Shown: positions 30,416 to 64,000 of the stretch, in pieces
How the letters are laid out: each line of letters opens with the position of its first letter
How positions within the stretch are numbered: position 1 is the first letter of the stretch
From: Elsinoe ampelina
Lineage: Eukaryota
NCBI GenBank assembly: GCA_010093995.1
Contig: ML992503.1
Location: forward strand, 549,234 to 613,233
Direction: 5' to 3'
DNA: 64,000 nucleotides
Made by a program: the position numbers and the translations under genes
Notes under the pieces: model-generated
What the model saw: only the letters and a program-made list of their open reading frames with translations
Told to the model about the DNA's origin: nothing
The model's database searches: none

Positions 30416-31159
30416 GATGAATGCTGTGTGACCTTGGGCGTTGCGATAACGGCGGCAACGGGGCTATCGGCGAAGAAGGACGATCACAGTATCATCGTTA
30501 CGCGACGTGAGTTTTGTGTCGCATATATTCGCTGTGAGATGGTAAGCAAGCTGACCACGATTTGGAATGTCGAGCGATGCAGCAGCAGGCGCAGTGAGCG
30601 GCAGACAAGTGTGAATTGTCAGGATAGAAGCGAGTGTGGCGGTGTCATGATGGTGGAGGGGTCTCTTTCGCTGGTGAAATCGTGCCTTGGCCTTCCCGCC
30701 GCCTGCCGCGCCCGATTCATGGTCCATTTTTTTCCAAGACACTGGGCCGGGGACTGCACCACAAAGAAACACTCACCGGAGATCTTGAGAATGGTTGTGT
30801 TTCACCTTGACAAGCATGTGCCATTACTTCTCTATATATCGGGCCAATCTAACCATGACGAATCACGCAACACATTGGGCAGGGATGCAAACAGGCTTCG
30901 AGCACTGTTAGAAAAAAACAAAGGTGCATGCACGCAGCTATCAATTACACATGCTGCTGCACGCATTGATCAAATGGTATCTGTGCTGCCTGCTCTCAAC
31001 AGTATCATCAAGCATGCTCCGCTGATGGCAACGACAAGAACGCCGCCGCAATGCCTCGTCCCGCCAAGCATCCTTCTCTGTCCTGCTCAATCACTCATGC
31101 TAAGACCATGACGTCTGACATTTACATACAACGTCCCTCATCTTGGCTCCAAGTAGTGC

Positions 31160-34127: not shown

Positions 34128-34878
34128 GTTGGGCTAAGATGCGAGGTGCTGTCGGATGGTCCGGGACGAGATAGATCGATACAGAGAATAGATGCACGTT
34201 CAATGCAGCGGCCGTCGGCGATCATGCAGCTCCATACATGGGATCATACGGAGCTGCTCGGGTCCAGTCACGTCTCAAGTCCAGATCGTCTAAGGTCGCG
34301 GCGAAATCGCGAGGCAGTGTTTCCAGAATAGCGATCGAACGAGGCAAGATGGTGAGGTTCAGTGGCCCAGCAATCGGGCGAAATTGTCTTGAGACGAACC
34401 AACATGTTCAAGGAGTTGCCCATCTCCAAAATGGACCGTGCACGTCGGTCGGCGTTAGCGGGACATGGCTCCACAAGACCCCACTTGCCATGAGACGATC
34501 TACAACCATAAAGCAGGCTAGCGATCTTCGGAATTCTTGAAGCTTCACCTTTGAAATACCACGCCATGTGGCCGTGTCAGTCGAGCCTCGATCGAGAGCT
34601 GGAGTACGACCATCAATGGTTCTGAGCTTCCGTGGACGTCAGCAGATCTGTCGAATGCTTGACCGACGCCGCTCCTATCACAATGAAGCTCAGACGAATA
34701 CACGGGATCGGCTTCACGCTGACTGTGTGTGAACCGTCTCGGAATGCGGCATTGCTGATCAATTTGGACATTCTCTACTGCAACTATCTACACCGCTCAA
34801 GGTGCATCATCAATCGTCGGGTACTCCGTCCTGGTATCATCACCCTCATCAACGCCGTGAATGCTCAATCGTTCTAGT

Positions 34879-35378
34879 TTACGGCTTGGTGGTGAAGTCA
34901 GTCTCGAGTTCGGAGCTAGCACCCGCCTCAGTACCACTGCAGTTGCAAGAAGCTGTTCCGATGTCAGCTTCGACACACAGCCACTCGCTTATTTTGGTGT
35001 ACTCACATGCTGAGCGTTTGCCGCAGGCACAGGTAGAGCCGGATGGCTTTGAGTTCTCGGTGCTGGCACGGGAGCAGGTGCATTCGCCAGCGGCGCGCAT
35101 GTCTGTATGATTGTCAATTACATTCTCAACGGATCGAGTTGATGGTTACTTACTGCATGAGCAACGGGCTCCGTCAATCTTGTTCTCGGTGTGGGCCTTC
35201 TCGCAGTTGCAGTGCATGGCAGCCTGCTTGCCACAGGAGCACTTGGCTTCGGCAGCGCAGATGCAGCCACCTTCACGACCGCAGCATGAAGCTATGTCAA
35301 GGTCAATGGAATGCTGAGGTAGATAGACAGCATGGTCGGCTATGACGTACCTGGGACAGCAGCGGTGGGTGCAGACAT
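34879..35378 (-). CDS. Cys-rich metallothionein-like copper resistance protein (Crd2/CrdA type), 111 aa; exons 35378-35351, 35291-35154, 35102-35007, 34952-34879
   Basis: Four exons with GT-AG introns splice to MSAPTAAVPASCCGREGGCICAAEAKCSCGKQAAMHCNCEKAHTENKIDGARCSCNMRAAGECTCSRASTENSKPSGSTCACGKRSASSCNCSGTEAGASSELETDFTTKP. Repeated CxC motifs and an ETDFTTK end. Confidence 0.85.
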
Positions 35379-42128: not shown

Positions 42129-42727
42129 GATCGGACGACATGCACATTTTATTCTTCTTTCCACTTCTGATTCACGGCAATGATATCCCGAGCGCGTTCA
42201 GCCGGCAGGGCCGGCATGATCCGATTTTTGATGCAGATTCTGTCCTTTTTCGAGTGTGGCTGACGGCGCATGGAAAATGGTGATGGCCATATAATGGGGA
42301 TACGGTCGGATTACACATTGCTTGTTACAATATTGAGGACAATGTCGCTACGCAGCGTGCATTTGTCCCGTTGCTTTCTTAAGTCCTCCTTCAGAGAGGC
42401 TTGCTGTAGATTATGAGATATCCCCAAGGAATTTGATCAAAATGATTTTCGAATACTGTATTCCCTGAGATTGGTCGATGACCTTTGCTGTTGATGGCGG
42501 GTGTTCGTCTTTTCGATCCAAGTCGATGCGTGCATGTGTCATCGCGTGTCTGTCCATTGATTCTGTGCTGATGTTTTCTCGAAGTCGTTGGCCAGGGCAA
42601 CCACTCACAAATAAGCGCGTGAAGCGCGGTAGACGCGGAGTCCCCTTCACATCCAAGAAACATCGTCACTCCAAATTGTTCGCGCGTACACAACCGTTTC
42701 GCCATCACTTCCCCTCCTTTCACCAAC

Positions 42728-44326
42728 ATGGCGTTCCGATCGAATGCGACTCCCATGGACTTTGAATATGAGAATGGTACTGGGCCTGTCGACTATCGCT
42801 CGCCATTTGGCGCATTGAGCAACAATCCTCAGAGATCTTTCGCTAGCATGGGTGATAGTCCAAGCAAGAAGCGGGGTATGGATGACCTCTTGACAGCTTG
42901 TCAAATAGCTAGTCACAGGTATAGAAGTATGACTGACCATACTGCAGGAAATGCGTCCAACTTTGGCGCGCCTACGAGATCTGCAGCTCCCAGCCATCGA
43001 CCCACGGACTCCCAACCATACGCTCGCATGCCGTCACCTACAAAACCTCCTTCGCCTTTGAAGAGCTTTGGCACACAATTCAATTTCAAGGGCAACCCAT
43101 TCTCCACACCCAGGAAGATCGAACCAGAAATCGCCTCGTCAGGAGGAGAAACACCAAAGTCACCCGAGCAGTCGATATTGGACAGCGATGCTACACCTGA
43201 CAACAGTATGAATTTCCGGGGCGTGGCCGCAAAGTTTGATGCTGCGACGGCTCCTACACTCAGCCCGTCAAAAGCAAAGAATAAACCGCTGGCGAATGTC
43301 GCAGAGAAGGACCCGAAGGAAAGACGGCGGGACAGCTGGCTGTGGCGTGCAGCGAGCTATGTAACGAACTCACCAACCTCATATCACACATCAGGCAAAG
43401 GCGAGATTGCAAGGGGTCCTTCGCATGACACGGACAACAAGGTTGTGAAGAAGCAACAGAAGAAGCGGAGGGGAGATGCTGTGCGACAGCTTATCAAGCT
43501 GCGGAAAGACTCTCTGTCCGAATCAGAAGACTCCCGACCGCCATCACCCAGCAAATCGAAACGAAAATGGGGCCGATCGAAGAAAGACGAACCTCTCCCT
43601 GAAGTCCCCAAGACAGGCGGAATAGGTAACTTCTTCAAATTCCTGACCGATCACCCAACACTCCCTCAGATTCTCTCGTGGTACGCTCAACTCACGCTCA
43701 ATTTCTTCCTCGTCTCCTCCCTCATCTACCTCCTCTACTCCTTTTACGCAACCATCAAAGGCGACATCGACAAGAAAAGCACAGAAGCTGTATCAGAATT
43801 GCTGGCGGAAATGGCAATTTGCGCAAGACAGTACACCGACAATCGGTGTGCGCCAGAGACCCGCGTACCAGCCATGGAAACCGTCTGCAACAATTGGGAA
43901 AAGTGCATGAATAGGGACACACGAGCGATGGGCCGAGCAAAGATCAGCGTTCACACATGGGCAGAAGTGTTCAACGCCTTTGTCGAGCCCATCAGCTGGA
44001 AAGCCATGGTAAGTCATCTATTCATGCCCACTTGCTTTGTGGATGACTAACATGTCCAGATCTTCTCCTCCCTCCTCATCTTCGGTTGCGTAGCACTCAG
44101 CAACTTACCCTTCTCCATGATCCGCCACCGAGCAGACGAAAGAGCGGCAGCCAACCATCATCATTACTACGGCAACGTCCCACCGACGCCGGGCAGGCAG
44201 TTTAGTAATCCAGATATGGGGTATTGGACGCCGCATGCACAGAACGTGGGCTTGGAGCCGGCGCCGAGTCAACCGGCAGGGATAGAAGGGAGGGAAAGTC
44301 CGGTGAAGAGGTTACAGTTCAGATAG
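42728..44326 (+). CDS. BRR6: Brr6/Brl1-like nuclear envelope protein; probable in-frame intron 42876-42947, intron 44009-44059
   Basis: TM segment followed by the four-Cys domain C...Y..NRC.PETRVPAME..CNNWEKCMNRD....GRAK.S....AEVFNAFVEPISWKAM and a second TM in the last exon. Confidence 0.85.
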
Positions 44327-44451
44327 TGCGACCTTCTTTGTACTAGAAGACCAGGAAGAGAAATGAATCATTCACGACTAGGTCATTGCTCTGGGTATCA
44401 TATGCCACTCCTCCTGCAAGCCCAGCTCCATTCCTCCCCCTCCCCATCACC

Positions 44452-45885
44452 TTACCCCCCACCCCCTTCCCAACCCCAATTCTCCACCACCCTTGCCCCC
44501 CTAAACCGCCTCTGCACCCACCCCTCCCCGTACTCAAAATACTCCTCCCTCCCGACCATACACCTCTCCACCCTCGCCCTCTCGGCCGCCACCCTCCTGC
44601 CCCCCTCCCACGTCGCCCCGATCGGATCCTGCGCCGTCCCAACCCTAACCTCGAATTCACTCGGCGCCACCGCCCTGACTTCCTCCTCCAACCTCTCCCT
44701 GAACCCAGGCAGGAGCGCATTGCCGCCCACGAGGACGACGTTGGCCAGCAGACCCTGCCAGAGAGAGCGGGGGAGGGGGCCGAGGGATTGCAGGACCGTG
44801 GCGGGGAGGCCGGATTGCGGGAGGGAGACGAGGGAGGAAGGGGAGAAGAGGAGTTCGGGGGGCACGAAGCGTTCGGTGGAGAGCGGGAAGGATTCTTCTT
44901 TTGATTTGTCCGTGTCCGTGTCGTGGTCGGCGGATGGGGCGGGGTGGGTGGGGGGCCCCGAGGGGTTGTTGCGTGGGCGGAGGTATCCCCGGTGGAGGCG
45001 GGTGTAGTCTGGGAGGATGTAATCTGCTACGACGTCCGATGGGGGACGGCGGGCGGAGCGGGGTCCCCGCCAGGTGGCTTCTAGTGCGTCGGGGAAGGAG
45101 GGGGCGACGAAGCAGGCGTCTTCTTTGATTTGGGAGATGATGTGGGGTTCGTCCATGAGGGAGAAGTGGCGGAGGGAGATCAGGGAGGCGAGGTGGTTGG
45201 AGATGTGCTTGCCGCCGATGTCGAGGCGGCGGATGCCAGAGGGGATGGGGCGGCCGCGGAGGAGAGGGGTGATGGTTGTGTGGGAGTGGGAGGAGTCGAT
45301 GAGGAGGAGGATTTCGATGGGGAGGGTAGAGGGGGCCGAGGGGGAGGCGAGGGATGGTGGGAGAGGATTGAGGGCGTTGAGGGAGGGCCCATTGACGCGG
45401 TAGGCGGAGGCGAAGGAGAATTCTTCGAAGATGATCTGGTCGGCGTTGGAGGAGAGGGCGGCGGGTCCGTTGGAGTGCTCCGTCAAGAGAAGGTTGGTGG
45501 AGGCTGGATCACACTGGGGAGATCAGTACAGTTGGACGAGATGTGATGGAATGAGGCTCACATATAACTTCGCCTTTGGATCGAAGAACTCATGCTCGAA
45601 GATGGCCCTTTCGAGGTCCCAGTTGACAATGTAGCCTCTCTCCACGGGTCGTCTGAATTGTATCTCTCCAAAGTCGTTGCACTGTGATAACGACGAGCCG
45701 ATGTATGTCTGTTTCGTCCGTGATCGGGCTATACAGTTTGGTATGACATGGCATTCTGTTTGCACCGCCGGGTCTTGTGATGATACTAGTCCCGCTTTGA
45801 TAGTGTATGCGCCAGGGTCAACAACAAGCGTTTGTGACTGAATCGAGGCTGATATTGTCGGAGCTACAGGAGTCTCTCTGGCCAT
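44452..45885 (-). CDS. ARP6: Actin-related protein 6 (SWR1 complex); intron 45561-45514
   Basis: LVVDPGAYTIKAG, FRRPVERGYIVNWDLERAIF, IFEEFSF, IRRLDIGGK, QIKEDACFV, DYILPDY, ERFVPPELLF, NVVLVGGNALLPGFRERL. Confidence 0.92.
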
Positions 45886-46273
45886 GATATGTTCCCTCTC
45901 AATTTGTCGAATATATGGTTGTTCAAGGGAAGAACCAGGACTGTCAACCGAGGTATAAGCTAGAGCGCCAAGAAGGACCCTGATTCAGTTCATCCCCTGG
46001 TAGAACTAAACACTTATCCACTACTCTACTAATTCATGATCAAATTAGATAGTTATTGTCTTAATCTGTTGTTACTTAGGAGTTCTATTGATTTATCTAT
46101 CTCTTAGTTTATTAGGTTAAGTATTTATATAGTTATAATCTACCTTAGTTTAGTAGATTAGGTAGTAATTAATCCTTTTTCCTCCCCTACACAAGTTAAT
46201 AGTTATAAGCCCGGTATAACTACCCCTATACAAGTATATTACTTAGTTACTTTCCTACTCTATTTATTAGTTA

Positions 46274-49200
46274 TGTTATAAACTGTCTAAACATAGTCTA
46301 TACTAGTGGTCTAAGCTAAGCTAAGAACAAGGTAGTTAGGGTGGTTAAGTGGGTAATTACTATACTCTAAAGAGTATAGTAATTACAACGTGACTTTTCG
46401 TGAAATTTTCGTGTTTTTTGATATTTTAACGTGCATTAGTAAGCGTATTTTACTAATAAAGATATTTGGTCTATACTATCAAAAATTCTGCATTTTTTAG
46501 TACTATTTTTGCTTATGTAATCTTAGATCCTGATTTTTAGTAGTGATTTCAAATTTCTTTCTTCTTCTAAAAATCAGGATCTAGGATTACGTAAGCGAAA
46601 GTAGTACCAAAAAATGTAGATTTTTTTATAGTATAGAAAAAATACTTTAGATTATAAAAGAAGCTTACTAATACACGTAAAAACATTAAAAAACACGAAA
46701 ATTTCACGAAAAGTTATGTTGTAATTACTATAGTAATTACCCACTCGACTACCCTAAAGGTAGTTCTACTTCTATAGTAGTATAGCACTAAGGTAAGAGT
46801 TAGAGAAGGTATGTCTTGTAGATAATAAAGTACAATTAGATAGTATTATAAAGGCTAGCCTTAGTAATACTAGTATTTACTATCTAGATAAGGTTAACTA
46901 TAGTACTTATATAAGGTAAGGACTATTCCTATATATATGTGCTCTTTACTACGTACTCTATATGCTCTATATACTCTATAGCGAGGGTCGGGGACAATAT
47001 AGAGTATATATCTACTAGTAACCTATATACTCTATAGTTTCTAGAGTAGAGCTACTAGAGAAGATAGAGAACTAGGTAAATATTAGGCTAGGTCACGTAA
47101 TAACCTTAGTAGTTTAATTAGTCCTAACGTCCCTACGCTCTAGCTATCCTACTAGTTTATAACATTACTCTTCTCCTTTAATCGAGTTGTCTTAATAAGT
47201 AAGTATTCTTTCTTATCCTTATATACTATATACTAAACATACCTCCTAGTTGTTAAAGGCATAGTAAATCTAGTATATTTATATAAAAGAACCTCTTAGA
47301 GTTTATTAAATTATTTAGAACTAACATGCTATAAGCTTACTCTTATTACAAGTTAAAAGAGCTAGACTATAAAGTCTATATTTAGTTAGGTATTTATAGC
47401 TAGTGTGTCGTAAGTAACTATTTAGGTTATAATATTTAGGTAACAAAATCGGAATAGTAGCATCTCTATTCTAAGCATATTTATTTACGAAAGAAATTAG
47501 TTATAGCTAAGGCTACTAGAAAGAAAGCTAAAGAAGCTTATAAAAAGGTAAAAGAGACTTATTAAAGAGCTATAGGTAATAAGCTTTACCTATATAAAGA
47601 GATATAGAAATTAGAGAATAAGGCAGAGAAAGTAATTTCTCTAGAGGAAACCTGTATTTAAGTTCTAGAGTAAGAAGAAATACTATCGTTAGTAAATTCT
47701 GTCCTACTATAGAATTAGTAATTATTTATACCTAACTCCGATTAGAGTTCTCTATTCGACAACGATTAGGGTACTTCTATTAGCTAAGTAGTCTTCCTTA
47801 GGCATTCTTGTTTTTGTTTAGTATTAGTAGTGTTAGGCCTACCTAGTTAGTTTACTTATAATAGGTTTTTGGTTTAGTAATCTAAGATTACTTATAAGGT
47901 AAGATGTTTCTCTAGTTCCTATATTGCCTTACTATACTAATGTCCTTTCTAGTAGATAAGATAGTAATGCTTTTCTCTTATAGATTTATAACGTAAAACT
48001 CTTTTAATCTTATACTATAGCTCCTATATCTCTTTATCTAGTTTAATAGGTCTAGGTACTATATCTTATAGTGCTTTCTCTAATAGTAATATATAAAAGA
48101 CTAGGTAGATCCTTATATATCTAGGTAGTTCTAGTTTATATATGTTTTTGTTTTTCTTTTCTAGGATCTTAAAGGGTCCTAGTTTAGTATAGTTAAGTTT
48201 CTTACTCGGTTGTTTCGTTTTAATGTTTTTACTAAGGAGATAAACTTTCTCTCTCTCCTATAGAATTAGTCCTATAATTCTCTTCTAGTTAGCAAACTCT
48301 ACTATTCTTTATAATATAAATACTATATCGTAGTATAGCTAGTTATATAGTTTCTTAATATTAGCTACTAGTATATTAGTATCCTTAGATATTAGCTTAA
48401 TTCTAAGTATGTTATAGTATAGATCTAAGTATATTCTATAGTTTATATAGAATAGTAAAATTCTATTCGCTAACTTTCTATTATTAATAGCGAGCTCTAT
48501 AAGTAGTAATAGTGTTACCTATAAGTCTTACTTATAGTTTAGATAGTATCGTAGGTACTACTCTAGTACTTAATTTACCTATTTAGTTTGTCCGTTCGTT
48601 TATAGATAAAAAGAGATTAATAGCTTATATTTAACTCCTAGTAGGTCTATAAATAATTACTAGAATTGTAATATAAATAGCTTATCCCTATTAGTTATTA
48701 GGTCTCGTAGTACTCTATATTATAAAACAATTATTTAGAGGAAGGTAAAGGCTATATTCTTAGTAGTTGCTATTGTCTTATATAGTATAAAGTAGTAATA
48801 CTTCGTAAACCTATCTACTAGGACTAGAATGCTATTATACTTTATACTTATAAGAGGCTCTTCTAATAGTAGTAGAGGTTCTATAAAGTCTATCGTAACT
48901 AATTACTATAGTTTGTCTAGTAGTAGCAAGAGTTATAGTAGGCTATATAATTTATATTAAGAGTGTTTAGACTTGTAGTATATATCGTATATAGCGATAT
49001 ATATCCTAATATCGTTTCGGAGTCCTTTCTAAAGATAGTTTTATATAATAAGTTTAATAGTCTTATTGATCCTACTATGTCCCGCTATTAGGTTATTATA
49101 GTGTATTTAAATAACTTCTTTTTTCTGTTCTTATATAAGCTCCTAGGTAAAGCTATATAACTACTCTATCTTTAGGTACTTATAGACTAAAGTACTATCC

Positions 49201-52200
49201 TACTACTTTAGTATAGAGGCTTCTATTATTGTTATGTTTTTTAAGTAATTTAGCTAGCGGCTAAGAGCGTCTACTCCGCTGTTCTCTAATCCCTTAATAT
49301 AGTAGATCTAGAAGTTATAGCTTGTAAGTGTTTCTAACTATTAAACCTATTATCTATTAAGAACCTTAGTTGTTATCTAATATAGAAGGTTCTTATAGTC
49401 GGTGTAGACTTATACTAGTAAGGTTGTCTCTTCTAGGTATACTCTCTATTTGTAGAATACTTCTATAATTGTAAGTAATTCCTTATTATATATATTGTAG
49501 TTAAGTTTAGGTCTAGTCATTTTTCGTAAGTAGTATATAATTAAGTAGCGTTATTCTTCCGCATCCTTCTACGCTAGATACACTTCTATTACAAAGTCTA
49601 AGGTATCTATTTCTAGTAGTACTTATTAGTCTAGGTTAAAGAGTACTAGGATAGGTACTATTATAAGTCTAAGCTTTTGCTCCTTAAAGGCCTACCTATA
49701 CTTCTTATTAAAGACAAAGCTAGTTTCTTTCTTTATAAGGTTAGATATTAGTATAGCTACCTTAGAGAATCCTTTAATAAACTTATAGTAGTAGTTAAAG
49801 AACTCTAGTAGTGCTTAAACCTCCTTAACTATAGTAGGTTCTAGCTAGTTATTTACTAACTTAATCTTTTTTAGGTTAGGTCTAATGCTATTAGTAGATA
49901 TAATATAGCTTAGAAATTGTATCTTATATTTATAAAACTTATACTTAAAGAGCTTTACTAGTAGGTCTTTCTCTTTTAGTTTCTATAGCACTTTATAAAT
50001 ATATCCTATATATTTATTATACGTCTTTAAGAAAATAATAATATTATCTAAATATGCTAAGATAAAGTTGTTAAGGTATTCTTATAGAGTGTTATTAATT
50101 AACTCTTAGAAGGTTATAGGAGCGTTAGTTAACCTAAAGAGTATAACGAGGTACTTATATAGACTCTATTATATCTTAAAAGCTATTTTCTACTCCTTAC
50201 TTTCCTTTATTTGTACTTAATAATAGACATCCCTAATATTAATTATAGTAAACTATTTAGCTCTAAGTAGTTAGTCTTAAAGTTTATTAATTCTTAGTAG
50301 AGAATAGTAATTCTTCCTAGTAAGTGTATTAAGTTTCTAGTAATTAATATATATTTATAACGTTCTATCTTCTTTAGGTATAAAAAGCACTTCGTGTGTA
50401 ATAGGTAATTTTAATAGTTATATAAATCCTTTAAGTAAGTACTTATCGATATAGTTCTTAAAGACGTTCTTCTCTTATTTCAATAGTAGTATAAGACCTT
50501 AATAGTGTATTAGGGATTTACCCTCTTTAAAAGGTATTTTATAATTCTATAGTTTATATTAGAGTAAGGCTATAATACCTTCTCTTTCTTTAAATAAGTC
50601 CTTAAAGTCTTTATATTTCGGCGGAAGTACTTAATTACTTACGCTAGTAATAGCTCTAACTATTAGTTATACCTATACTATCCTTATAGTTAGTATCTAT
50701 AGAGCTAATTATGCTTCCTATGTCTTATAATTATACTTAGGGAATTTAAGTGTTTCTTTAATCTAGTCTATATCTAGATTGTGTTATTAAAGCTAGTCTA
50801 TACTAAGTACTATATTATACTACATGTTAACTATATTAATTAATCGTTTTTCTATATGTATTTTAATTTTAATTATAACATTTCGTAGTTCCTAAGTAAC
50901 TTTCCTATTCTTTCCTATAGGGGTTCTATCCGCTATAGTAAGTAGGTAAGGTAACTCCTTCTAGTATTAATAAGGTTTAAGCTAATTAGCAACTATTATA
51001 GAGATATAGCTATAGTTAGCTCTTAAATCTATTATTGCTCTTACCTTATTTCCTTATATATAGACTTCTAGTATAAAGTAATTTAATATATAGATCTTTA
51101 TTATATTAAGGCTTTAGCTAGTGTTATTGTCTTACCTTATTAGGCAATAACTATTTAGTTTTTTGTCATTATAGCTCCTTAGATAAGTAGCTAATTCCTT
51201 CCTATATGTATCTATTATTAGTACTATATCTATTAGGCAAGTTATGTTTTATTATTGTTTAATATAGCAAGGTAAACTTCTAGCGCCTAAGTCCCTTAGT
51301 AACTATAAAGTCTAATAATTCTCTACTAGTTGTACTAAGTAGTGTTATACACCTATATTAGTATAACTATTCCTTCTAGGTGTAGCTAGATGTTAGTATC
51401 GAAGACAAATATAAGTTAAGTAGATTTATCTTATTATGTTCTATTCTAGTAGTAGGTGTATATTATTATATAATTTCTCTATATCCCTATAAGGTATACT
51501 TTAAGTTATCTACCCGGTAGTAGTATATCGTCGTTATCGAATAAGTCCTTATCTATATTATTATACTATAGTTATTCGGTGTATTCCTTGTTATATTTCT
51601 CTTTATCGCTACTACCTCTAGTATAGTTATAGTTAGTAAGGCTACACTAAGTACACTCTTATACTTAGCTATAGGGAATAGTACTACCTATCTTAATTAC
51701 CGAGAAGTCCGTAGTGTATTTAAGACTAATAGTATCTTCTCTAAGTATATCGTGTAAGTAGATAGTATAGTACTATTTATAATCTAGACTTATACATTTC
51801 TAGAGTAATATATAATATACCTTTCCTTATAGTTTACTATAAGAACTAAAGGTAAGGTTACTATATTATTATATAGCACTTATGTCCTAATACTTCGTTT
51901 CGATAATTGTATATTAGTAGTTATTACTAACTACTTTCTAAGGTTAGTTAATATTATTACTAATTATAAGAAGCCCTTCTAGGTTAAACTCCTAGTCTAG
52001 CTATTTCGTTAGTTGCCTATACTTAGATAGCTTATATAGAAACTAACTAGATCCCTACTTGTCTAATAAGTAAATATAACAAGAGTTATTATAATATACT
52101 ATCTATAATAGCGTTATATATTAGCTTCGTTGTTTACTATTAGTTATAGAGATATTAAGTATAATATCTAGAGAGAATTCTCTTGCCTCTTAAGTCGTTA

Positions 52201-53716
52201 TAGACTCCTTCTATATTTCCTTACCTACGCTATAGGTCGTTAGGTCTTCTATAGTAGTATTAGCCTTTTTCTCTACTAGCCTAGTAACTATTATATATAA
52301 TCTATTAGCTAGTGCCCCTTGTCGGTAGTCTCTAGCTCGATGTCTAGGTCTTTTATACTTAAAACATAAATTGTCTTATCTATACTTCTCTCTCTCTTTT
52401 CTACTAAGGAACTTTCCTCTATAGCTATAGCCTTATACCTATAAGGGGCAGCCTTTACGTATAGTATTAAGTTCTATAGAGTCTCTATAGTTTCGAGAGG
52501 AACGCGTATATCTAGTATTTACCTTATATCCTCTATAACGTTCTATATGTCGTTTATAAAGTCTATTATTAATAGCAATTATAGTGTCTACTAGTTCCTA
52601 AAGGCTATTAGGCAGCTCGAGTATTATTTAGTCTTTAACCGAGTCGCTTAGTCCTTAATAGAATACTAAGTGTTTAGTACTATCGTTCTAGTCTAGATAT
52701 ATTACAAGTTATTAGAACTAGGAATAGTACTAGGCTATAGACCTACGTTGTTATAGTTATTAGATCTTTATTATAGCGATATATTCCTTATTAGATACGT
52801 TAAAGACTTGCTTAATCTTTGCCTAGAAGATATTAAAGCTCTTAAAGATAGCCTTTATATCTAGGCTTAGTTATCTATCTAGGTAGCTACTTATATAAGG
52901 CTTAAACTACCTAAAGGTAGCGCCTTTAAGGTATATCCTAGCATAGAGAACCTTCGCTACGTCGTTAGCGTACTTATCCCCCTCTAGGGCAAAGAAGGCT
53001 TTAAGTTAAATAAGAAAATGCCTTAAGTAGGCACGGTCTTTATAGAAGAGTTCTACTTCTAACTTAGGCTTACTCTATCCTTCCTCTATACTAAGAAACC
53101 TTCTATATTTACCCGAGGTTAAACTAGTAGTAGATATGTCGTTAATAGTAAGCTTTCCTAGCTTACTAGCGATTAAAGATACTAATAGTAACTTAGAGTA
53201 AGAGTTACTTATTAACCTCGTAGCGTGCTATACTATAGTAAGAGTAGTTAAAATGTTACGAACTGTCTAAATATAGTCTACACTAGTAGTCTAAGCTAAG
53301 CTAAGAATAAGGTAGTTCTACTTCTATAGTAGTATAGCACTAAGGTAAGAGTTAGAGAAGGTATGTCTTATAGATAATAAAGTACAATTAGATAGTATTA
53401 TAAAGGCTAGCCTTAGCAATACTAGTGTTCGCTATCTAGACAAGGTTAACTATAGTACTTATATAAGGTAAGGACTATTCCTATATATATATACTCTTTA
53501 CTACGTACTCTATGTGCTCTATATACTCTATAGCGAGAGTCGAGAGCGATATAGAGTATATGTCCGCTAGCAACCTACGCGCTCTATAGTTTCTAGAGTA
53601 GAGCTACTAGAGAAGATAGAGAACTAGGTAAATGTCGGGCTAGGTCACGTAATAACCTTAGTAGTTTAATTAGTTCTAACGTCCCTACGCTCTAGCTGTC
53701 CTACTAGTTCGTAATA
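46274..53716 (-). mobile_element. Full-length chromoviral Ty3/Gypsy LTR retrotransposon, RIP-inactivated; LTRs 46274-47164 (contains MITE) and 53254-53716
   Basis: 463-bp direct LTRs TGTT..AACA/AATA and 5-bp TSD AGTTA/GGTTA (46269-46273, 53717-53721). Minus-strand motifs: CCHC knuckle ~52325-52372, protease IDSGA ~51020, RT AYLD(D)I ~50045, integrase, chromodomain YLI.WKG...WEPE ~47900-47970. PPT next to 47164. Confidence 0.93.
46337..46756. mobile_element. 420-bp foldback (near-palindromic) non-autonomous hAT-type MITE
   Basis: Ends TAGGGTGGTTAAGTGGGTAATTAC / GTAATTACCCACTCGACTACCCTA, with 8-bp TSD AAGGTAGT (46329-46336, 46757-46764). Absent from the other Gypsy LTR. Arms are inverted copies over ~190-200 bp. 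Confidence 0.88.
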
Positions 53717-54779
53717 GGTTAATTCTCTACTATCTTACTTTTTAAACATTAAAATCTATTAAGAACTACCTTAACTATAACTACAGGATTTAGGTATTAA
53801 TAAAGAGATAAACAACTATAGATACTAACACCTTAATAGCTAGAACACCTATTATTCTTACTATATTAGCTAAATAGGCTAGCTAGCTATACATTATTAA
53901 GATAAGAGTATTAAATACTAAGATATAGAACCTTATTAATCCCTAGAAGACTATTAAACTAGAAGGGCTCTCTAAGCCTTAAAGGCTAGAGGTAGCAAAT
54001 ACTAATTCCTTAGCACTCTTCTAGATATATAAGGAGAAATAAGTATAGTATAATAAATAGCTTAAGGCCTTAGTAGATCTTATAAGCCTTATTTAGTTAT
54101 TAATTGTACTATAAGTTCTTACTATTATCTAACTAAAGGGAGATCCTTATCTCTAGGCTATCCTTAGAGTATTAAAGAACAGATTTACTCTATCTAATGT
54201 AGCTATTTAGCTTAAGGTTAAAGCACTTTAGAGGAAGTAGCTATCTAGTCCTTCCTTATAGAATATAGACTATTAGCTTTAGTAATAGAAAGAGGTTATA
54301 GATAAGGCTAGGAACTATAATCTACTAGAAGCTTAAGGCTTAAGGCTATAGAGAGACTTCTTACTCTCTATCTTAAAGGCTAAACTAGCATTTACTAATA
54401 AGTATCTTATTAATCTAGATTTACTAACTCTACTAACTATGCTTAAACTAATTACTAAGTTTAGATAGTTTTATAAACTCTATAAGCTATATAGCACTAT
54501 AAAGGCTAGTAAGAGAGCTACGGCCTTCTCTATAGCTACTAAGAATATTCTTTATAAGAAACCTAGTCCCTCTAGAGAGCCTAAATATATGTACTAAGGC
54601 CGGTATAAGTAGATTAAGTACTATTACTTAAATAAGTATCTAAGGCTAGAAGGATAGACACTAAACTAGTAGACTATAAAGGAGGTTAAATAAAGGCTAA
54701 ATAATAAGACTCTTAAAGAGAGAATTAAGGCTTCTATTACTAAGGAAGTATAACATTAGAAGGGGTTAACCCTACTAGT

Positions 54780-55169
54780 NNNNNNNNNNNNNNNNNNNNN
54801 NNNNNNNNNNNNNNNNNNNNNNNNNNNNNNNNNNNNNNNNNNNNNNNNNNNNNNNNNNNNNNNNNNNNNNNNNNNNNNNNNNNNNNNNNNNNNNNNNNNN
54901 NNNNNNNNNNNNNNNNNNNNNNNNNNNNNNNNNNNNNNNNNNNNNNNNNNNNNNNNNNNNNNNNNNNNNNNNNNNNNNNNNNNNNNNNNNNNNNNNNNNN
55001 NNNNNNNNNNNNNNNNNNNNNNNNNNNNNNNNNNNNNNNNNNNNNNNNNNNNNNNNNNNNNNNNNNNNNNNNNNNNNNNNNNNNNNNNNNNNNNNNNNNN
55101 NNNNNNNNNNNNNNNNNNNNNNNNNNNNNNNNNNNNNNNNNNNNNNNNNNNNNNNNNNNNNNNNNNNNN
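54780..55169. other. Assembly gap (N run)
   Basis: Run of N. Confidence 1.
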
Positions 55170-55409: not shown

Positions 55410-55949
55410 NNNNNNNNNNNNNNNNNNNNNNNNNNNNNNNNNNNNNNNNNNNNNNNNNNNNNNNNNNNNNNNNNNNNNNNNNNNNNNNNNNNNNNNNNNN
55501 NNNNNNNNNNNNNNNNNNNNNNNNNNNNNNNNNNNNNNNNNNNNNNNNNNNNNNNNNNNNNNNNNNNNNNNNNNNNNNNNNNNNNNNNNNNNNNNNNNNN
55601 NNNNNNNNNNNNNNNNNNNNNNNNNNNNNNNNNNNNNNNNNNNNNNNNNNNNNNNNNNNNNNNNNNNNNNNNNNNNNNNNNNNNNNNNNNNNNNNNNNNN
55701 NNNNNNNNNNNNNNNNNNNNNNNNNNNNNNNNNNNNNNNNNNNNNNNNNNNNNNNNNNNNNNNNNNNNNNNNNNNNNNNNNNNNNNNNNNNNNNNNNNNN
55801 NNNNNNNNNNNNNNNNNNNNNNNNNNNNNNNNNNNNNNNNNNNNNNNNNNNNNNNNNNNNNNNNNNNNNNNNNNNNNNNNNNNNNNNNNNNNNNNNNNNN
55901 NNNNNNNNNNNNNNNNNNNNNNNNNNNNNNNNNNNNNNNNNNNNNNNNN
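55410..55949. other. Assembly gap (N run)
   Basis: Run of N. Confidence 1.
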
Positions 55950-56043
55950 CTAAAACTAATTAGATTACTTAATCTACTAAGGCTCCTATAGGAGATTAAT
56001 AAATCTAAAGAGGTATATAAAGTAGAGGGAACAACTAAACTAA

Positions 56044-56236
56044 ATCTAGTTTAGAATCTAGTTTAGTATCTAGTTTAGTATCTAGTTTAGAATCTAGTTT
56101 AGAATCTAGTTTAGAATCTAGTTTAGTATCTAGTTTAGTATCTAGTTTAGAATCTAGTTTAGAATCTAGTTTAGTATCTAGTTTAGTATCTAGTTTAGAA
56201 TCTAGTTTAGAATCTAGTTTAGAATCTAGTTTAGTA
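56044..56236 (+). repeat. 12-bp tandem repeat TCTAGTTTAG(A/T)A, about 16 copies
   Basis: Directly visible array with two interspersed unit variants. Confidence 0.9.
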
Positions 56237-56573
56237 GCTAAACTAGATACTATCTTAGACTCTAAGTTAGAGTAGAGTAGTTAGTAGGTAGAGTAGGGTA
56301 TATAATTTAGATACCTATACCCTACTCTACCTATACTCTACCTACCTCTTAGTATACCTATACTAAGGTAGGTAAGGGTAGGGTATACCGGGAGGTAGGT
56401 AGAGTAGAGTAGAGTAATTAATTTTATACCTAGTAGAGTATTAGTAATCTAAAAAGTTTAAGTAGCAATCTTAAAAGTTAATAAGAGAGGATTACTAATT
56501 ATAGATTATAATTACAAACTGTATTCTCTAATGCTACTACTTATAGATTTTGCACTTTTAATCCCTATTATAC

Positions 56574-57839
56574 CTAGGCATTAGACATCTCCTTATCCTT
56601 AACCTTAGTAGTATCCTTATCCTCTATATCTTTATCCTCTATATCCTTATCCTTATTATCGTTATTAGTGTTAGTCTTAAGCTCGGAGTACTCTATAACC
56701 TTATTATTCTTATCCTTACTATCCGACTTATCTTTAACTTTAACACCTAAATAATTATTCTCCTTACTACTAGCTTCTTTATCTAATATCCTTTCGATCT
56801 TATTCTTATCCTTCTTAACCTTCTCCTTACACTTGTTATTATTATCTCCTTTATAGTATAGCCTAGTACTATAGAGTTTAAGCTCGGAGATGTATTTATA
56901 CTTAGGAGGTAAGGGAATAACTTGCCTATATAATTGTTAGAATACACTATAATTAAAGACTATAATAAACTTACTACTAGTTAGGATCCTATAAGACTAC
57001 TAATTCTATAGGAGAGAGCTCTTTAAGCTACTTAAAAAAAATCTCGTGCGCCTATTTATTATTAGTGTCGTTAGTAACAAGGCTTATATAGCTATCCTAG
57101 TAAATCTAGCGCTATAGCTTCTCGATAATACCGCTAGTACCGTAGATATATATATAGGCTTATATTAGCTATTATTTGCCTTACTAATTTACTACTATAT
57201 TATCTTAGATACGCTTAATAATCTTATTATACTCTTACTTTTATAGAGTCTTTCTAATACTAGTCTATTTCTTATAGGTCTATATAAATATAGATTCGAG
57301 CTACTCGCCTACAATAATTAGTACTACTATAATAGTATACTATAATAATAGACTTACTACTCCTCTACTTATTAAAGCGTTTCTCCTTTATATTATTAAT
57401 AGTATTATTAATTTTAATATTCTGCTTATTAGTAGAGAGCTAGTCCTATCTATTCTCTACCTTAATCTTGTTACGTAAAGTACTAACTACTTTACGATCT
57501 ACTATATAAGTAGTAGCTAGAGCTTGCTTCTTATATATACGCTAAGAAGTATAATCTTTCTACTTAATAGTATAAGCGCTTTAACTTAGAGGTCTAGAGT
57601 GTCTAGCGACAAATCTAGTCTTATAGCCCCTTCTAGTTTAACTAGCGCTACGCTAAGAGATCTAGTATTTAATTTTCTGCTACTTAGAATTAAACCTCTA
57701 GTATTGTTAGTAACTGTATATAATAAGAAACTATAATTAATACCCCTAATAATTCCTTTAGAATATTCTCTCTAGAGTCTTCTTCTTACTTAATTACTAC
57801 CTACTCTTTCTACTCTATCTTAATATCTTCTATAGGTAT
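56574..57839 (-). pseudogene. RIP-inactivated unknown spliced gene with acidic C-terminal tail (hAT passenger)
   Basis: One reading frame is held across three intron-like segments (GT..CTAA..AG), and the stops seen are TAA/TAG types explicable by RIP. De-RIPed start MPVEDVETEQKE, end EDEDVEDEDATEVEDEEMSDA*. Confidence 0.6.
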
Positions 57840-58184
57840 AGATATTTAATTAAATGTAATAAAAAGAGTATTTATAGTATATGAATTGTATATAAGGTAA
57901 GTAAAAGAGGTAAAGGTATAAAAGTAAAGTTAGAGTTAGGAATTATAATTTATAAATATATAAAATAATAAAAGGGAAAGCTAGAGTAAGGAACAAGAAA
58001 GCTATTATTATATAAGTTATTTATTATTCTTCTATTGTTCTTATTGTTAATAGTAAATAGTATATCTAATAATAGATTTTATATTTCTTACTCTAGCCTT
58101 CCCTTTTTACTATTTTATATATACTAAAATTTTATATACGAACTTTAACTTCTTAGCTATATATAAATAACCTCTCGTTTTACT

Positions 58185-58689
58185 ATAGCACGTACTAAGA
58201 ATTGTCCTTAAGCTACTACTAGTCCTAGAGAAAGAGGTTATAAAGGGAAGTAATCTACTATAAAGAAGATACTATAATCCGGGGCTAAGCCTAGAAAGAA
58301 GTATAGATATAAGCCTAGTAGTAATTATTATAGTCTTTAATTATAGTATAGAACTAATAGAAGCTAGCTATCGCTCTCCGAGAGATTTATCACTACTAGA
58401 AAGAGGTTACTTTATTATTCCGTAAGCTTCTCTTTTCTTGCCTTATCTATAAGATTACTTAGGACTTTAAGTCTAACCTCCGCTTCTAGACTAGTATAAT
58501 TAGAGCTCTCTAGGAATTAGTAGAGGCATTTATTATTAAATATATAGAAGGTATATACTTATCTAATATATATTAAATTCTCTATTAACACTATATATAG
58601 ATATAAACCTTAATACTATCTATACTAAGTATATTACTATCTAGGCTAAGGACTCTAGCCTTGCTAAGCGCTACTATAAGAAGTTCTAG
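58185..58689 (+). pseudogene. RIP-inactivated histone H3-like gene (hAT passenger); introns 58321-58367 and 58551-58600
   Basis: Reads (M)ARTK...RYKP(G)TIALREI..Y(Q)K...LLFRKL(P)F...I(AQ)DFKS(D)LRF(Q)...AL(Q)E.VEAF...ED(T)NL..I(HA)K(RV)TI(Q)AKD, colinear with canonical H3 numbering 1-129. The 3' end is uncertain. Confidence 0.92.
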
Positions 58690-59014
58690 GTTAGTAATAC
58701 ATTAAGGGTTAGAGCTTTAGGTAGTACTTTATACTAGGGGAATAGTATAGAGAGAGTAATAAATTTCTTTACTATAATAATACAATATAATAATACTTTA
58801 ATCCTTTCTGTTTATTATATACTTTAAAGATTAGAATTGAAAATATTAGTTATAATTAATATTTATAATTATATAGGGGCTACTAGTACGTTTTAAAATG
58901 CCTTATATAAAGTAATAGTAGAGAAGACTTTCTAATAGTCTAAAAACAAATCTATTATTTAAAATTGTATAGCTAAATAAGTATAATATTATAAACACCT
59001 ACACTATCTATAAT

Positions 59015-61414
59015 ACTATATAACCTCTACTCTACTATAGTAGACTCTAACGATCTAATTAATCTACAACTGTGTCTTCTATTAACTCTATTAGTTATAG
59101 TAATCCTTATCCCTTAAGATTTACTTAACTATCGTTTTACTATATAATAACGTAATAAGGGTAGTTAGCCTATATAACGGCATCTTCTAAAGTATCTAAC
59201 GCTTAATCCCTTAGTACGTTCTAACGAATAAATAGACCTCTAAAGCTTCTTAACGTAGTAGAACTTAACACTTTAGGTATCTCGCTATAGTTACTTTAAG
59301 GAGTTCTATATGCTATACTAGAACTTAAAACTAAGAACTAGACAAGTATAGGGATATTTTAGAGAAGCTATATAGGTATTAGATAGCCGTCTATACGTTT
59401 ACTACCTATAGTGTAGTAATGCTCTTACCTACCCCGTGCTAGAAAAGAATAGTACTAATGTAATAAGCAAATATAGAGAGTTAAATTTTTGTAGGAAAGT
59501 AACAAGACTAGTCTATAAGGGAGCACTAGTACTCCGAGCACTTATATAACTTCGAGCTTATCTAGTAATTAATTAGAAAAACGTTCTATTATATTTAGTT
59601 ACTCGCTTCTAATTAGAGCTTATTCGAACAGTTGTTAACTATAATTAGTCCTTCTACACTATTAAGTGACTATTATTTTAACAGTTTATATAGTTCTTAC
59701 ACCCGGAAGTACTTATACTAAGCCGTAGTTATTTCGCTACACTCTTTGTTAACGAATTTAAGACTCTCTATAAAAGCTTATTATAGAATCTTAATAAGAC
59801 TATAAAGATTTTAATTGCACTTAATAGCTAGTCTGCTAATAACTACTTAGGCTTTATTATAATTAAAGCTTATTATATTAACGACTAATAGTAGCTCTAG
59901 GAACAACTATTAGATATAGTACTACTTCGCGGTTAATATATAGGGCAGAATATAGCTACTAAGCTTATATAGGTACTCTAGTAGTATAATCTCTAGGACC
60001 GGCTTCTAGCAATTACTACGGACAATGTAAGTAACAATTATACGTTGCGTAAGACTATATATAAGCTTCTAAGATAGATAGGTATTATATAGAACTCGTA
60101 AGAGAATACTATTCTATGCCTTACATATATTATTAACCTAGTTATATAAGACATTATTAAGCACCTTAACCTTTAGACTACTAAGGAAGAAGAGTAGGCT
60201 ACTAGGCTTAAAAGATAGCACTTAAAAGACATCTCTACTAAACTCTTAGAACTAAACTCGCTTCGGAAGGTTAGCTTTCTAATTACAGTTTCTAATTATA
60301 GTCTAATAAATTGCTAGCTTTATATAACTTATATTACTATCGATCGATTATCTTAATAGTTTAAGAGGTTTATTAACCTCTAATAAACTATAACGCCTCG
60401 AGAGTGTAAGGTTATTATTTAAGATATTAAGACGTAGTAGAACTTAACCTTCGATATATATAAGTATAGTCTTAAGCTTAGGCTATTTATCGATAAATAG
60501 CTTAAGTAGAAAATTGTACTAAAAGGCTCTACTAGTGCTAGATCTAACTTAGTTAGTAATGACACTAGTAATCTAGACTATAAGGATCTTAAGCGTCTTT
60601 ATCTTAATAGTATAGAATAGAATTACCTTAAGCTAGTCATAAAAATGCTTAAGAACTTTAAGGAAGTAACTACCTCTCTAAGTACTATTAGCTGCCTATA
60701 GATCTTATATATCTAGATAATGTATAATTAACTATTTAACTTTCTTAATATAATTAAGAATAGTGTTATAGGCGAGGAGAAGGATAATAAGGAGCGTTAG
60801 CCTATAGTAGTTAGAAGAGTAGCGTAACGTAGTTAAGATAAACTATTAAAGTACTATTCTTACACTAATAATAAGAGGGGTTACTTCTTTAATTATAGTA
60901 CTATTCTCGACCCTTTATAAAAGCTAACTCCTTACGAGGTTTATAGCTTATAGATATATTATTATAGTAAAGCTAATAGTAATATAGAACAAGACCTAGG
61001 CTAAAACTAATAAGGGGAAGTATTACGAGTAGTTCCTTAACTACCTTAGTTATTATAATAGTAAATCACTATTAAGTTAACCTAAAACTCTTAATGCTAT
61101 AATCTTGTCTAATAATAAAGAGAATTAGTTCTGTTAACCTCGGGTACCTATATAGATTACCTCTCTATAGACTAGCTTTAGCTTCTAATCTAGTGTAGGG
61201 TCTATATCTCTAGAATAAGAGAAGGAGAAACGAACTATATATTAAGAGAGTAAGAATTACCTTAGTATCCCTCCTGTCCGAATTTAACTAGGGACTAAAT
61301 TTAAGTTGCTTAATTAGTAGAAGACTAATAAGAAGAAGTTCCTATAGCTTACTAAAGTCGCTTATAATATTCTTACTATACTAATAGCTAGTATAGGCAT
61401 TAAACGCGTCTTTA
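59015..61414 (+). pseudogene. hAT transposase, RIP-inactivated and interrupted in the dimerization domain
   Basis: De-RIPed BED finger (VWGYF..C..C..H), ALDGWS (~59815), ITTDNASNN (~60012), IPCLAHIINLV (~60111), DVKTRWNSTFDM (~60423), FP.LAKVA.DIL.IP.ASVGIERVF (~61340-61413). Start approximate. Confidence 0.9.
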
Positions 61415-64000
61415 CGTTACGAAATCTCTAACGCTAGAGAGCTACGTTAGACTACTTCTAAGTAACTAACTTAGTTTAACTTAGTTTAATGTAATCCCCT
61501 AGTTACCTCTAGGTTCTACTTAGAAGTAATATAGTTTTTCCCCGTAGAAATCTAAAAACCTCTAATGCGTAGTAAATAGAGATAGCTTAATAGTAGATAG
61601 CATACTACGTATATCTCTTATCTTAGTTTAAGCATTTCTTAGTTCGCGAAGTAATTAGTTCGTGTCTACTCTATAAGCTTAATAATATTAATTATAGAAA
61701 TATTCTATTATATAGCTTACCTTATAGTATATATTATATATGTCTATATATTATATAGACCTTGTAATTCGTCTACTACGTCTAGAAAATTATATAAGGT
61801 CGCTAGAATATATATATTGCTTTATGTTCTACCTAATACTACTCTTAATAACGATATATATACTATCTTCTTATAATTCTATATCCTTATCTCTTAGTTC
61901 TATAAAAGCATCTCTATCTAGTAGATGTCTATTCTCCTTAATGTCTAAGATACTACTACTATGCTTTAGGCCAATTCGGTACTATAAGACTAGTTTACGT
62001 AGTAGGCCTTTAAACTTCTTACGTGTAAAGGACAAAAAGTTTATCTACGTCCGTGTACCTAAGAAATCCTTCTACTATACCTTAACTACTAGTAAATCGC
62101 TATTAAGTTGTCTGTCTTAGGACAGTATAGCACGCGTATAATTAAGTAGCCCGGGTAGATATTGCTATTAAGTCTATTAATCCTTATATATACTAACTGC
62201 GACCTAACTTAGTTTAGTAGTAGTTAAAGTTATAACGAGGTTACTGTCTATATTAGGCATCTACGCTAGCTATGCTTCTATCGTAGGAGTCGCTATAGAG
62301 CGATTTAGTACTTTGCTTCTACACGCGAACTAAGTAGTACCTTAATACGCTATAATAGAGCGTTTAGCCTTAATTAGACACTCTTCTTAATCTATTAGTA
62401 TTAAACTTAAGAAGCTAATAGGAGAATTAAGCTTACCTCTTAAAAGGTGCTTAGTAGAAGTATTTCGTACTAGTACTATATAATAGCTATTACCTCCGCT
62501 ATTAGGCTTATTATTATATACCTAACTTCTCTATAAGTTAGTTCGAAGTTAGGTAGGCTAAACTAAAACGAGAAGGTATATATATACCTTTCCCTTGTAT
62601 CTTCTCTATCTAATAGTCTCTCTATAGTATTAGCATAAAGAGATATATTTAACACTACTACTACGATAGTAAGTCTATTTCTCTCGACGTACTTAGTAAA
62701 GCTAAGTTTTAGCTAACGAAGAATAAGAACCTATCTTAGGCTAATCTACGCTAGAAAGTTATTCTAAATACTTAGTTAGACATAATTAAGTTCTAAAGGT
62801 TCTATATGTTTAAATACTAGCGTTTCCTTAGGTAAGTAGAACTTAACCCCGTTTGCTTACTTAACTAAGAGTATATAAATTATTACTAGGAGGGAGGAAA
62901 TAAGAAAGAGTATTAGTTTGTTAAAGTAATAGCGAGTGCTAGCTATTATAGCTAAGCCTACACGTCCGATAAAGGCTACTTAGAAGGCTTTATATATTAA
63001 AGAACTCCTAAAGTATTTACGCTACTATATATAAGTAATTAATTAATAAGTACATCTAGCGCGTACTAAATCGCCGTCCTTATATTAGTACTTTCTTTTC
63101 TCTAGTAGCCTACGTGCCTAATTTAGTAGCTCGCTATCCTCTAGCCCCTTAGCTAGCTATTCGTAGTAGAGTATCTTACTTACTATTTATGTAATGTTAT
63201 TATAACTATAGTAGAGCGCCTCTCGGAGCTATATGTATATTAATAAGTAATTAGCTTTAGCTACGTAACTTACCTTACTAGCTATAACTACGGAAGAGTA
63301 TTTACCTATAGTTCTCTATAGATAAAGTACTAGTAGCTAGTTACGGACTAAGCGCTAGTACTATATAATTTATAGAAGTAGCTATTAATTGTCTAATGTT
63401 AGTAATATTATATTATAATCTACTTCGATAGCTATACTTATATATAGATTGTTATATACTGCCTTAAAAATATTAAGATACTAGTTTAGTACGTTCTATT
63501 GCCTTTACTTTACTATCTTAACTAGTATAGAGGCTAATATTAGGCTATTCTCGTTAGGTTATAGCTCTCTTAAACTTAGATCGAGAGTAGTAATGTCTAA
63601 TTTATACCTTCTCCTTTGTCTTTAATGTTATATTTATAGCCTACGTAGTTAGCTTAGTCTCCCTTAATACTAAAGCCTTACTCTGCTTTATCCTAGTCGA
63701 AATAACCTAAATTATTATCTTCGGAATACTTATTAGTCTTATAGTCCGAGCTATATAGGCACTAACATGCCTAAGACATCTTAGTTTATAATAGTTCTAA
63801 TAAAGAGATATATAGGTATAAGAGAGTTAGTAAGGCAGGCCGGAATAATACATACTATAAGGGGGATAGATAGTTATCTTATATGCGTTATAGTAATTTA
63901 GTATTAGTTTAAGTTAGATAATAGCTTAGTTAGGTATTTAGAGTACGCAACTTTCTTCTAATTAGAATTAGTTATATCTGCCTATACCCTAAGGTAATCT
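61415..64000. mobile_element. Unclassified RIP-degraded insertion (possibly LTR-type) that truncates the hAT transposase; runs off the right edge
   Basis: Transposase similarity stops right after ERVF. The new sequence starts (C/T)GTTACGAA, similar to the Gypsy LTR start. No RT or integrase motif recognised in this part. Confidence 0.45.

Follow-up and report, generated by a model that had tools for sequence, protein, structure and literature searches.

We analysed a 64,000-nucleotide stretch of the Elsinoe ampelina genome (assembly GCA_010093995.1, contig ML992503.1, positions 549,234 to 613,233 of the forward strand; hereafter the window, in whose coordinates all positions are given) and concentrated on a gene resembling histone H3 at 58185-58689 on the plus strand. 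The feature is very probably a dead copy of a hAT-superfamily transposon, mutated through repeat-induced point mutation (RIP) and carrying a transduplicated histone H3 gene, the histone fold of which was kept by selection while the N-terminal tail drifted. The find, an H3-like gene that RIP has killed beside a hAT transposase, is of a kind already published (Manning 2013; Dhillon 2019), as the original prediction made from the same DNA had stated, and it adds a further lineage to those published in which hAT elements captured and amplified histone H3 in ascomycetes.

Annotation by hand and with a script resolved the H3-like gene into three exons and two introns. Exon 1 (58185-58320, +) holds residues 1-44 and ends one base into codon 45, exon 2 (58368-58550, +) holds residues 45-105, from alpha-N to alpha-2, and ends one base into codon 106, and exon 3 (58601-58689, +) holds residues 106-134 and the terminal TAG. 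Both introns are of the GT..AG type, lie in phase 1 and contain branch-point-like CTAAC remnants. Intron 1 (58321-58367, +) is 47 bp long and its branch-point-like remnant reads CTAAT, while intron 2 (58551-58600, +) is 50 bp long and interrupts codon 106. Exons 1 and 2 lie in different frames, a shift that splicing alone resolves, and the spliced length is 408 nt, corresponding to 135 codons plus the terminal TAG. The start codon is ATA instead of ATG, and a total of eight internal in-frame stops are spread across the exons, namely at codons 8, 22 and 30 in exon 1, at codons 55, 76, 85 and 93 in exon 2 (every one of them a canonical Gln codon), and at codon 120 in exon 3. With its ATG lost and eight internal stops, the H3-like copy is a pseudogene without an intact frame able to yield protein; it now has no role as a protein and belongs to an AT-rich repeat block. 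The introns bear on how the gene was acquired. In read-through open reading frames (ORFs) of bona fide fungal H3 genes (P0021, P0022, P0024 and P0031), the intron reading passes into exon 2 just before G44-T45, and at the site of intron 2 (after E105) the read-through ORFs P0045, P0047 and P0145 end in '...FE', after which comes an intron reading that starts with G. The intron positions of the present gene therefore match those of bona fide fungal H3 genes and fit the capture of a genomic H3 gene, and the fact that both introns were carried in this lineage indicates that the capture was genomic and not by a retrocopy.

The H3-like copy aligns without gaps to filamentous-fungal H3, with a C-terminus shorter by one codon. 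The reference for this alignment consisted of residues 80-215 (the last 136) of database protein P0058, which we read as the canonical fungal H3. Residues R40, Y41, K42, P43, K56, K64, K79, K115 and K122 are all in register, and across the 135 codons 55 residues are identical and 37 are explainable by RIP. A two-intron gene colinear with H3 had been predicted, and the gapless 135 codons together with the GT..AG introns of 47 and 50 bp bear this out. The stronger wording, that the gene is exactly colinear, holds for its total length and for both flanks of the tail, which are in register, but not for tail residues 12-23, where the divergence is too high to fix the local register. Homology of the fold to H3 is evident from several searches. 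Exon 2 matched PDB chains in phmmer with an E-value of 9.1e-12, gapless over H3 residues 46-104, and the Pfam domain PF00125 (Histone) was matched with an E-value of 1.1e-4 and 22.9 bits, under its 26.4-bit cut-off when scored within a 1117-residue frame. When canonical H3 was compared with the window by tblastn, E-values below 0.01 were obtained only at 58370-58573 and at 58582-58671, the latter match (E-value 0.001) supporting exon 3. The copy is thus homologous to H3 and colinear with it across the histone fold.

The tail is a different matter. For each codon we asked whether reversal of RIP could restore the canonical residue, with any T free to derive from C and any A from G. In the tail (residues 1-39), 8 residues are the same as in canonical H3, 7 are RIP-explainable and 24 show non-RIP change, compared to 47, 30 and 19, respectively, in the fold (residues 40-135); because the RIP-explainable class is a generous one, the non-RIP counts are lower bounds for tail and fold alike. 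Non-RIP change thus affects 24/39 tail residues versus 19/96 fold residues (Fisher odds ratio 6.5, p 4.9e-6). All six fold lysines (6/6) are retained, and the number of basic residues in positions 1-44 is 14, equal to that of canonical H3. Codons 9 (GCT), 14 (AGA), 18 (TAT), 23 (TCT), 36 (AGA) and 110 (AAT), as well as AAG at codons 4 and 27, read just as the original prediction had listed them, so that the tail, although of canonical length, holds only K4, K27 and K37 of the canonical set K4, K9, K14, K18, K23, K27, K36 and K37. K14 and K36 have become Arg. K9 has become Ala within positions 8-12, which read stop (derivable from Arg)-Ala-Thr-Thr-Ser (derivable from Gly), so that S10 is changed too. 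The patches that survive are ARTK at positions 1-4, a stretch at 24-27 from which AARK can be derived, and the region from K37 onward. RIP may have created some of the AAG/AAA codons in the tail from codons for Arg, Glu or Gly.

Lys codons are immune to C>T and G>A changes, and the lysine losses are therefore not products of RIP. Since neutral decay after inactivation would strike both regions alike, and since Lys codons are RIP-immune, the excess of change in the tail must have arisen while the fold was under constraint. These data support the view that the tail diverged before inactivation, with the fold constrained as long as the protein mattered, and they agree with the earlier claim that the lysines were lost before the element died while the fold stayed conserved. 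The asymmetry between fold and tail further indicates that the cargo was selected as a protein for some time. The silencing-mark lysines, in contrast, were not singled out: tail lysines were lost in 5/8 cases and other tail residues in 19/31 (odds ratio 1.05, p 1.0), and the suggestion that modifiable lysines had been targeted finds no backing in these counts.

The H3-like gene lies in an AT-rich block that extends from ~46 kb to the end of the window and has a GC content of 0.24-0.33, compared to 0.50-0.61 in the gene-rich part. About 1 kb downstream of the gene, on the same strand, there is a stop-riddled, RIP-degraded remnant of a hAT transposase (approximately 59650-61460, +), with a transposase-like core readable from ~59650 in the frame that starts at 59301. 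Its dimerisation domain at ~61255-61453 (+), 2.6 kb downstream of the H3-like gene, matched PF05699 (Dimer_Tnp_hAT) with an E-value of 7.9e-5 and 22.8 bits (cut-off 21.4), and this C-terminal domain places the transposase in the hAT superfamily. RIP is indicated by a TpA/ApT ratio above 0.89 and a (CpA+TpG)/(ApC+GpT) ratio below 1.03. Over 55950-64000 the first ratio is 1.87 and the second 0.21, and the H3-like gene alone has values of 1.80 and 0.17, versus 0.52 and 1.32 for the GC-rich block at 26001-46000. Both indices, together with the predominance of transitions among the differences between copies (see below), identify the region as a RIP-affected repeat.

Copy number was assessed with public sequencing runs, of which X1 and X2 come from organism A, X3 and X4 from organism B, and X5 from organism C. 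Sampled words of 57900-61500 were present at 47% in X1/X2, 8-10% in X3 and X4, and 7% in X5. Contig pieces with at least 80% likeness to 57900-59000 numbered 324 in X1, 1050 in X3, 685 in X4 and 87 in X5, and all 30 depth bins over this interval were covered in each of X1, X3 and X4. The H3-like stretch therefore belongs to a high-copy family, and the contig pieces on 57900-59000 indicate that the transduplicated gene was amplified, probably together with its element. Transitions account for 112/134 variant places in X1, as expected for RIP. Individual codons were followed in 40 of the 159 variant rows. Codon 23 is CCT (Pro) and not TCT in 13/13 X1 contigs that cover it, and CCT also occurs there in contigs of X3, X4 and X5, while codon 30 is CGA in X5. 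An A>T transversion at 58309, which turns Y41 into F, was found in 13 X1 contigs (depth 3694.6 of 5947) and marks a subfamily in organism A. All C>A and T>A places in X3, X4 and X5 are at 58473; 58467 and 58472; and 58031, respectively. With regard to the organisms themselves, pieces of the RIP-mutated 57900-59000 stretch with at least 99% likeness numbered 229 in X3 and 153 in X4, and the sharing of RIP-mutated words suggests either that the organisms are closely related or that the run labels overlap.

Two published systems invite comparison. In Pyrenophora tritici-repentis, 26 nearly identical, transcribed H3L genes reside on hAT elements of 5.6 kb and 2.3 kb; they match neither canonical H3 nor CenH3, show little RIP, have insertions in the tail and variable fold helices, and were proposed by the authors to have possible effects on chromatin (PMC3538342). 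The present element resembles these in combining a hAT transposase with an H3-like gene, in its size (~5.6 kb there versus a candidate 5.3 kb here), and in the divergence of the tail. Unlike the P. tritici-repentis H3L genes, which are intact, transcribed and carry tail insertions, the present copy has been killed by RIP and its tail length is unchanged. In six species of Mycosphaerellaceae (Pseudocercospora fijiensis, P. musae, P. eumusae, Cercospora zeae-maydis, Sphaerulina musiva and S. populicola), 135-784 RIP-killed H3-like copies on hAT elements were reported, present only in AT-rich blocks with a CA-to-TA bias, and a 9.5-kb element with one or two H3-like copies was described, for which an intronless retrocopy was inferred (PMC6710886). 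An H3-like gene within a hAT element, a high copy number, an AT-rich block and inactivation by RIP are common to that system and ours, whereas the present element has a single H3-like copy, upstream of the transposase, versus one or two in the Mycosphaerellaceae element.

The consensus sequences of Dhillon 2019 allow the comparison to be carried to the gene itself, although they were translated by eye, which is error-prone, and over parts 1-3 of 5. By eye, the C. zeae-maydis consensus and the second copies of P. musae and S. musiva contain GT..AG introns of ~50-100 bp at both positions seen in the present gene. The '16-amino-acid insertion' described for the second copy has about the size of one such intron. 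These second copies may thus be genomic captures or retained-intron forms. The tail of C. zeae-maydis appears to be shorter and to keep GKAPRK (K14, K18) and GVKKP (K36, K37), and that of the second S. musiva copy appears to keep ARK (K9-like), RK (K18), RK (K27-like) and KK (K36/37). The present tail, of canonical length and without K9, K14, K18, K23 and K36, differs from both, each of which keeps several of these lysines. This suggests that the loss of K9 and K36 is particular to the present lineage and not a common trait of hAT-borne H3 genes, and, judging from these sequences, the tails of separate hAT-borne H3 genes have apparently diverged in different ways. In the text of Dhillon 2019 (PMC6710886), which does not discuss tails or lysines, the terms lysine, tail, H3K9, N-terminal and heterochromatin do not occur. 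The terminal inverted repeat (TIR) of the C. zeae-maydis element was absent from the window at up to three mismatches.

Taken together, these observations can be accommodated by the following scenario. A hAT element would have captured an H3 gene as genomic DNA with both introns. During the activity of the element, the histone fold of the cargo would have been under purifying selection and the N-terminal tail free to drift, so that the tail could have retained its basic charge but lost most of its canonical residues, including K9, K14, K18, K23 and K36. The element would then have reached a high copy number, and RIP would then have destroyed the copies, the present one included.

Several points weigh against this reading or narrow what it can claim. 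The ends of the element have rival candidates. We scanned for a target-site duplication (TSD) of 8 bp with a 16-bp inverted end, tolerating transitions, and obtained two candidate pairs of limits; 40 shuffles gave 2 hits between them, and the reversed and complemented controls gave none. The first candidate, 56354-61635 (5,282 bp, +), has a TIR-like end of ~19 bp and the 8-bp flanks CTCTTAGT and TTCTTAGT; the rival candidate from the same scan is 56763-63544 (6,782 bp). Both contain the H3-like gene and the transposase, but they overlap without nesting, so that at most one can be real and the two are mutually exclusive. Neither begins with the hAT-typical YAG, and a search with a repeat tool found no convincing TIR pair among 600 AT-rich inverted repeats. 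The left end could lie within a run of N (540 bases, 55410-55949), which, like a second such assembly gap (390 bases, 54780-55169), falls between a Gypsy-like relic and the hAT region. The original prediction had placed the gene inside a hAT element; the downstream PF05699 domain on the common strand upholds the association, whereas containment in one element is something that we infer from proximity, shared strand and analogy with the published elements, given two rival sets of ends. Kinship with the published family is also limited at the sequence level. None of 17 motifs (9-15 nt) from the window was found in the six consensus sequences of Dhillon 2019, in which a control motif was found, and those of P. 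eumusae and S. populicola are short and, by eye, have no H3-like part. With neither the short motifs nor the C. zeae-maydis TIR giving similarity to the published consensus sequences, the present element appears to be a different lineage at the sequence level and not a near-identical member of that family. Within the window, neither self-comparison by blastn nor tblastn with canonical H3 revealed a second H3-like copy. As to the history of the tail, the generosity of the RIP-explainable class has been mentioned, and the copy variants have their own limits. Lys-restoring transversions at codons 9, 18 and 23 were absent at a share of 4% or more in X3, X4 and X5, where these sites were covered; this result pertains to X3-X5 only, as X1 has a further C>A place and eight T>A places outside the rows followed. 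For the AGA codons 14 and 36, AAA is reachable by a RIP-type change, so that copy variants cannot judge them.

How the tail came to differ could be explained without any selection on a divergent protein, if the differences were neutral decay accumulated after the inactivation of a canonical cargo. The copy is indeed heavily mutated, with its 8 stops, and the 19/96 fold residues with non-RIP changes show that some drift occurred after inactivation or under relaxed constraint. Equal rates in tail and fold are expected from such decay, however, and the odds of non-RIP change are 6.5-fold higher in the tail. In addition, Pro at codon 23 is shared by the 13/13 X1 contigs and by contigs of X3-X5, and Lys is not restored at codons 9, 18 or 23 in X3-X5, which together imply that the states of these three codons predate the amplification. 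We therefore regard decay after inactivation as very improbable. Slightly less probable still is that the gene is a paralogue or pseudogene of the host's own H3 that merely sits beside an unrelated hAT relic in the AT-rich block. Filamentous fungi do own H3 variants besides canonical H3 (cited in PMC3538342), and the existence of two rival TIR/TSD candidates leaves room for such an arrangement. Yet contig pieces of the 1.1-kb stretch number in the hundreds in X1, in X3 and in X4, which would not be so for a single-copy gene, and both candidate limits enclose the gene together with the transposase.

The third alternative accepts a transposon-borne, selected H3 and goes further, in that the protein made before RIP would have been a selected anti-silencing factor, incorporated into nucleosomes and unmethylatable at K9 or K36. 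We consider this unlikely. It is equally doubtful, in our view, that many expressed copies would have diluted or dominantly disturbed the H3K9me3/HP1/DNA-methylation silencing of the element. In its boldest form, to which we give little credence, the proposal describes an expressed, nucleosome-competent H3 with K9 (the DIM-5-type site) and K36 unmethylatable but the K4 and K27 motifs kept, acting from tens to hundreds of copies as a semi-dominant counter-defence against heterochromatin. Some of our observations are in its favor: the tail changed at a time of constraint on the fold, the 6/6 fold lysines and the basic charge of the tail (14 versus 14) were kept, K9 is absent and S10 altered within R8-G12, the segment required by DIM-5 in vitro, and the ARTK(4) and AARK(27)-derivable motifs persist in an otherwise scrambled tail. 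The H3L genes of P. tritici-repentis are transcribed, and effects on chromatin were raised by their authors (PMC3538342). The idea is also mechanistically plausible, because in Neurospora crassa an ectopic hH3 with K9 substituted (K9L/K9R) abolishes DNA methylation (PMC3248561). Like that construct, the element would have supplied an extra K9-less H3 gene beside the wild-type H3; unlike it, a single substitution in canonical H3, the present gene is dead and differs in 24/39 tail residues. The nearest functional analogy is provided by the VANC proteins of the Arabidopsis VANDAL (Mutator-like) elements, which are encoded by the transposon and counteract the silencing of their own family (PMC10398659), but these are sequence-specific DNA-binding proteins and not histones, and no homology is claimed.

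Against these points stands that lysine loss was no commoner than the loss of other tail residues, so that the selective loss of conserved lysines that would characterize such a class of histones is not what we see. A tail with 24/39 residues changed resembles a general relaxation of constraint, and the replacement of K14 and K36 by Arg is the commonest conservative drift. The published C. zeae-maydis and S. musiva tails, as translated by eye, keep lysines lost here, and RIP silenced the family regardless. Intact relatives with this tail did not turn up either in the searches made. When exon 1 was translated with X for each stop and compared, at the longer lengths, with a set of 5.8 billion proteins, no candidate shared three 5-residue words with it, which is weak evidence. 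For the fold, exon 2 was compared by phmmer with 1.84 billion representatives, and 1940 hits had an E-value of at most 0.001; among the best 150 of the 1940, the top 20 were multi-stretch fusions or tandem H3 proteins and the others canonical-type H3 proteins with 37-53% identity, and no tail scored above the canonical-tail score (maximum 43). A RIP-tolerant 40-nt pattern for codons 4-17 had 0 matches in metagenome contigs. If the anti-silencing idea were nevertheless true, this would be the first transposon counter-silencing factor made from a core histone and would give a natural means of studying the dominant effects that K9-less H3 has on heterochromatin, and intact relatives such as the P. 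tritici-repentis H3L genes make even the boldest form of it testable.

Returning to the dead hAT copy that we favor, some features of its surroundings may be described. An imperfect palindrome of 225 bp (57927-58151; self-blastn identity 73%, E-value 3e-28), whose arms at 57970-58028 and 58049-58107 are 81% complementary, stops 34 bp upstream of the H3-like gene's degraded start codon and is, like the gene, high-copy. Between the palindrome and the start there is a TATA-like run (~58160-58170). The palindrome may be a remnant of a promoter or of a capture junction. Further upstream, 16 perfect tandem copies of a 12-nt unit (TCTAGTTTAGWA) occupy 56045-56236, after which comes a partial copy in inverted orientation. 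This array may belong to the element as a subterminal repeat, or it may be a minisatellite unrelated to it. A divergent H4 partner was looked for on the minus strand upstream, and no histone match was found in the three frames of 55950-59302.

Elsewhere in the window, 46000-54780 on the minus strand is, by translation, a long RIP-degraded Ty3/Gypsy-like pol region that includes reverse transcriptase, RNase H and integrase-like parts. This relic is a separate retrotransposon adjoining the hAT relic. AT-rich blocks (GC 0.28-0.38) also occur between GC-rich genes at 1-1000, 18000-21000 and 23000-26000; they showed no blastn similarity to the 56-64 kb query, of which the hAT/H3 region is a part, and are presumably other RIP-affected repeats. 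A 780-codon open frame at 31262-33604 on the minus strand resembles adaptins, the large subunits of AP complexes (feature scores very high throughout). Some of its nearest clusters count Ascomycota among their commonest taxa, and the frame appears to be an ordinary host gene of the GC-rich part.

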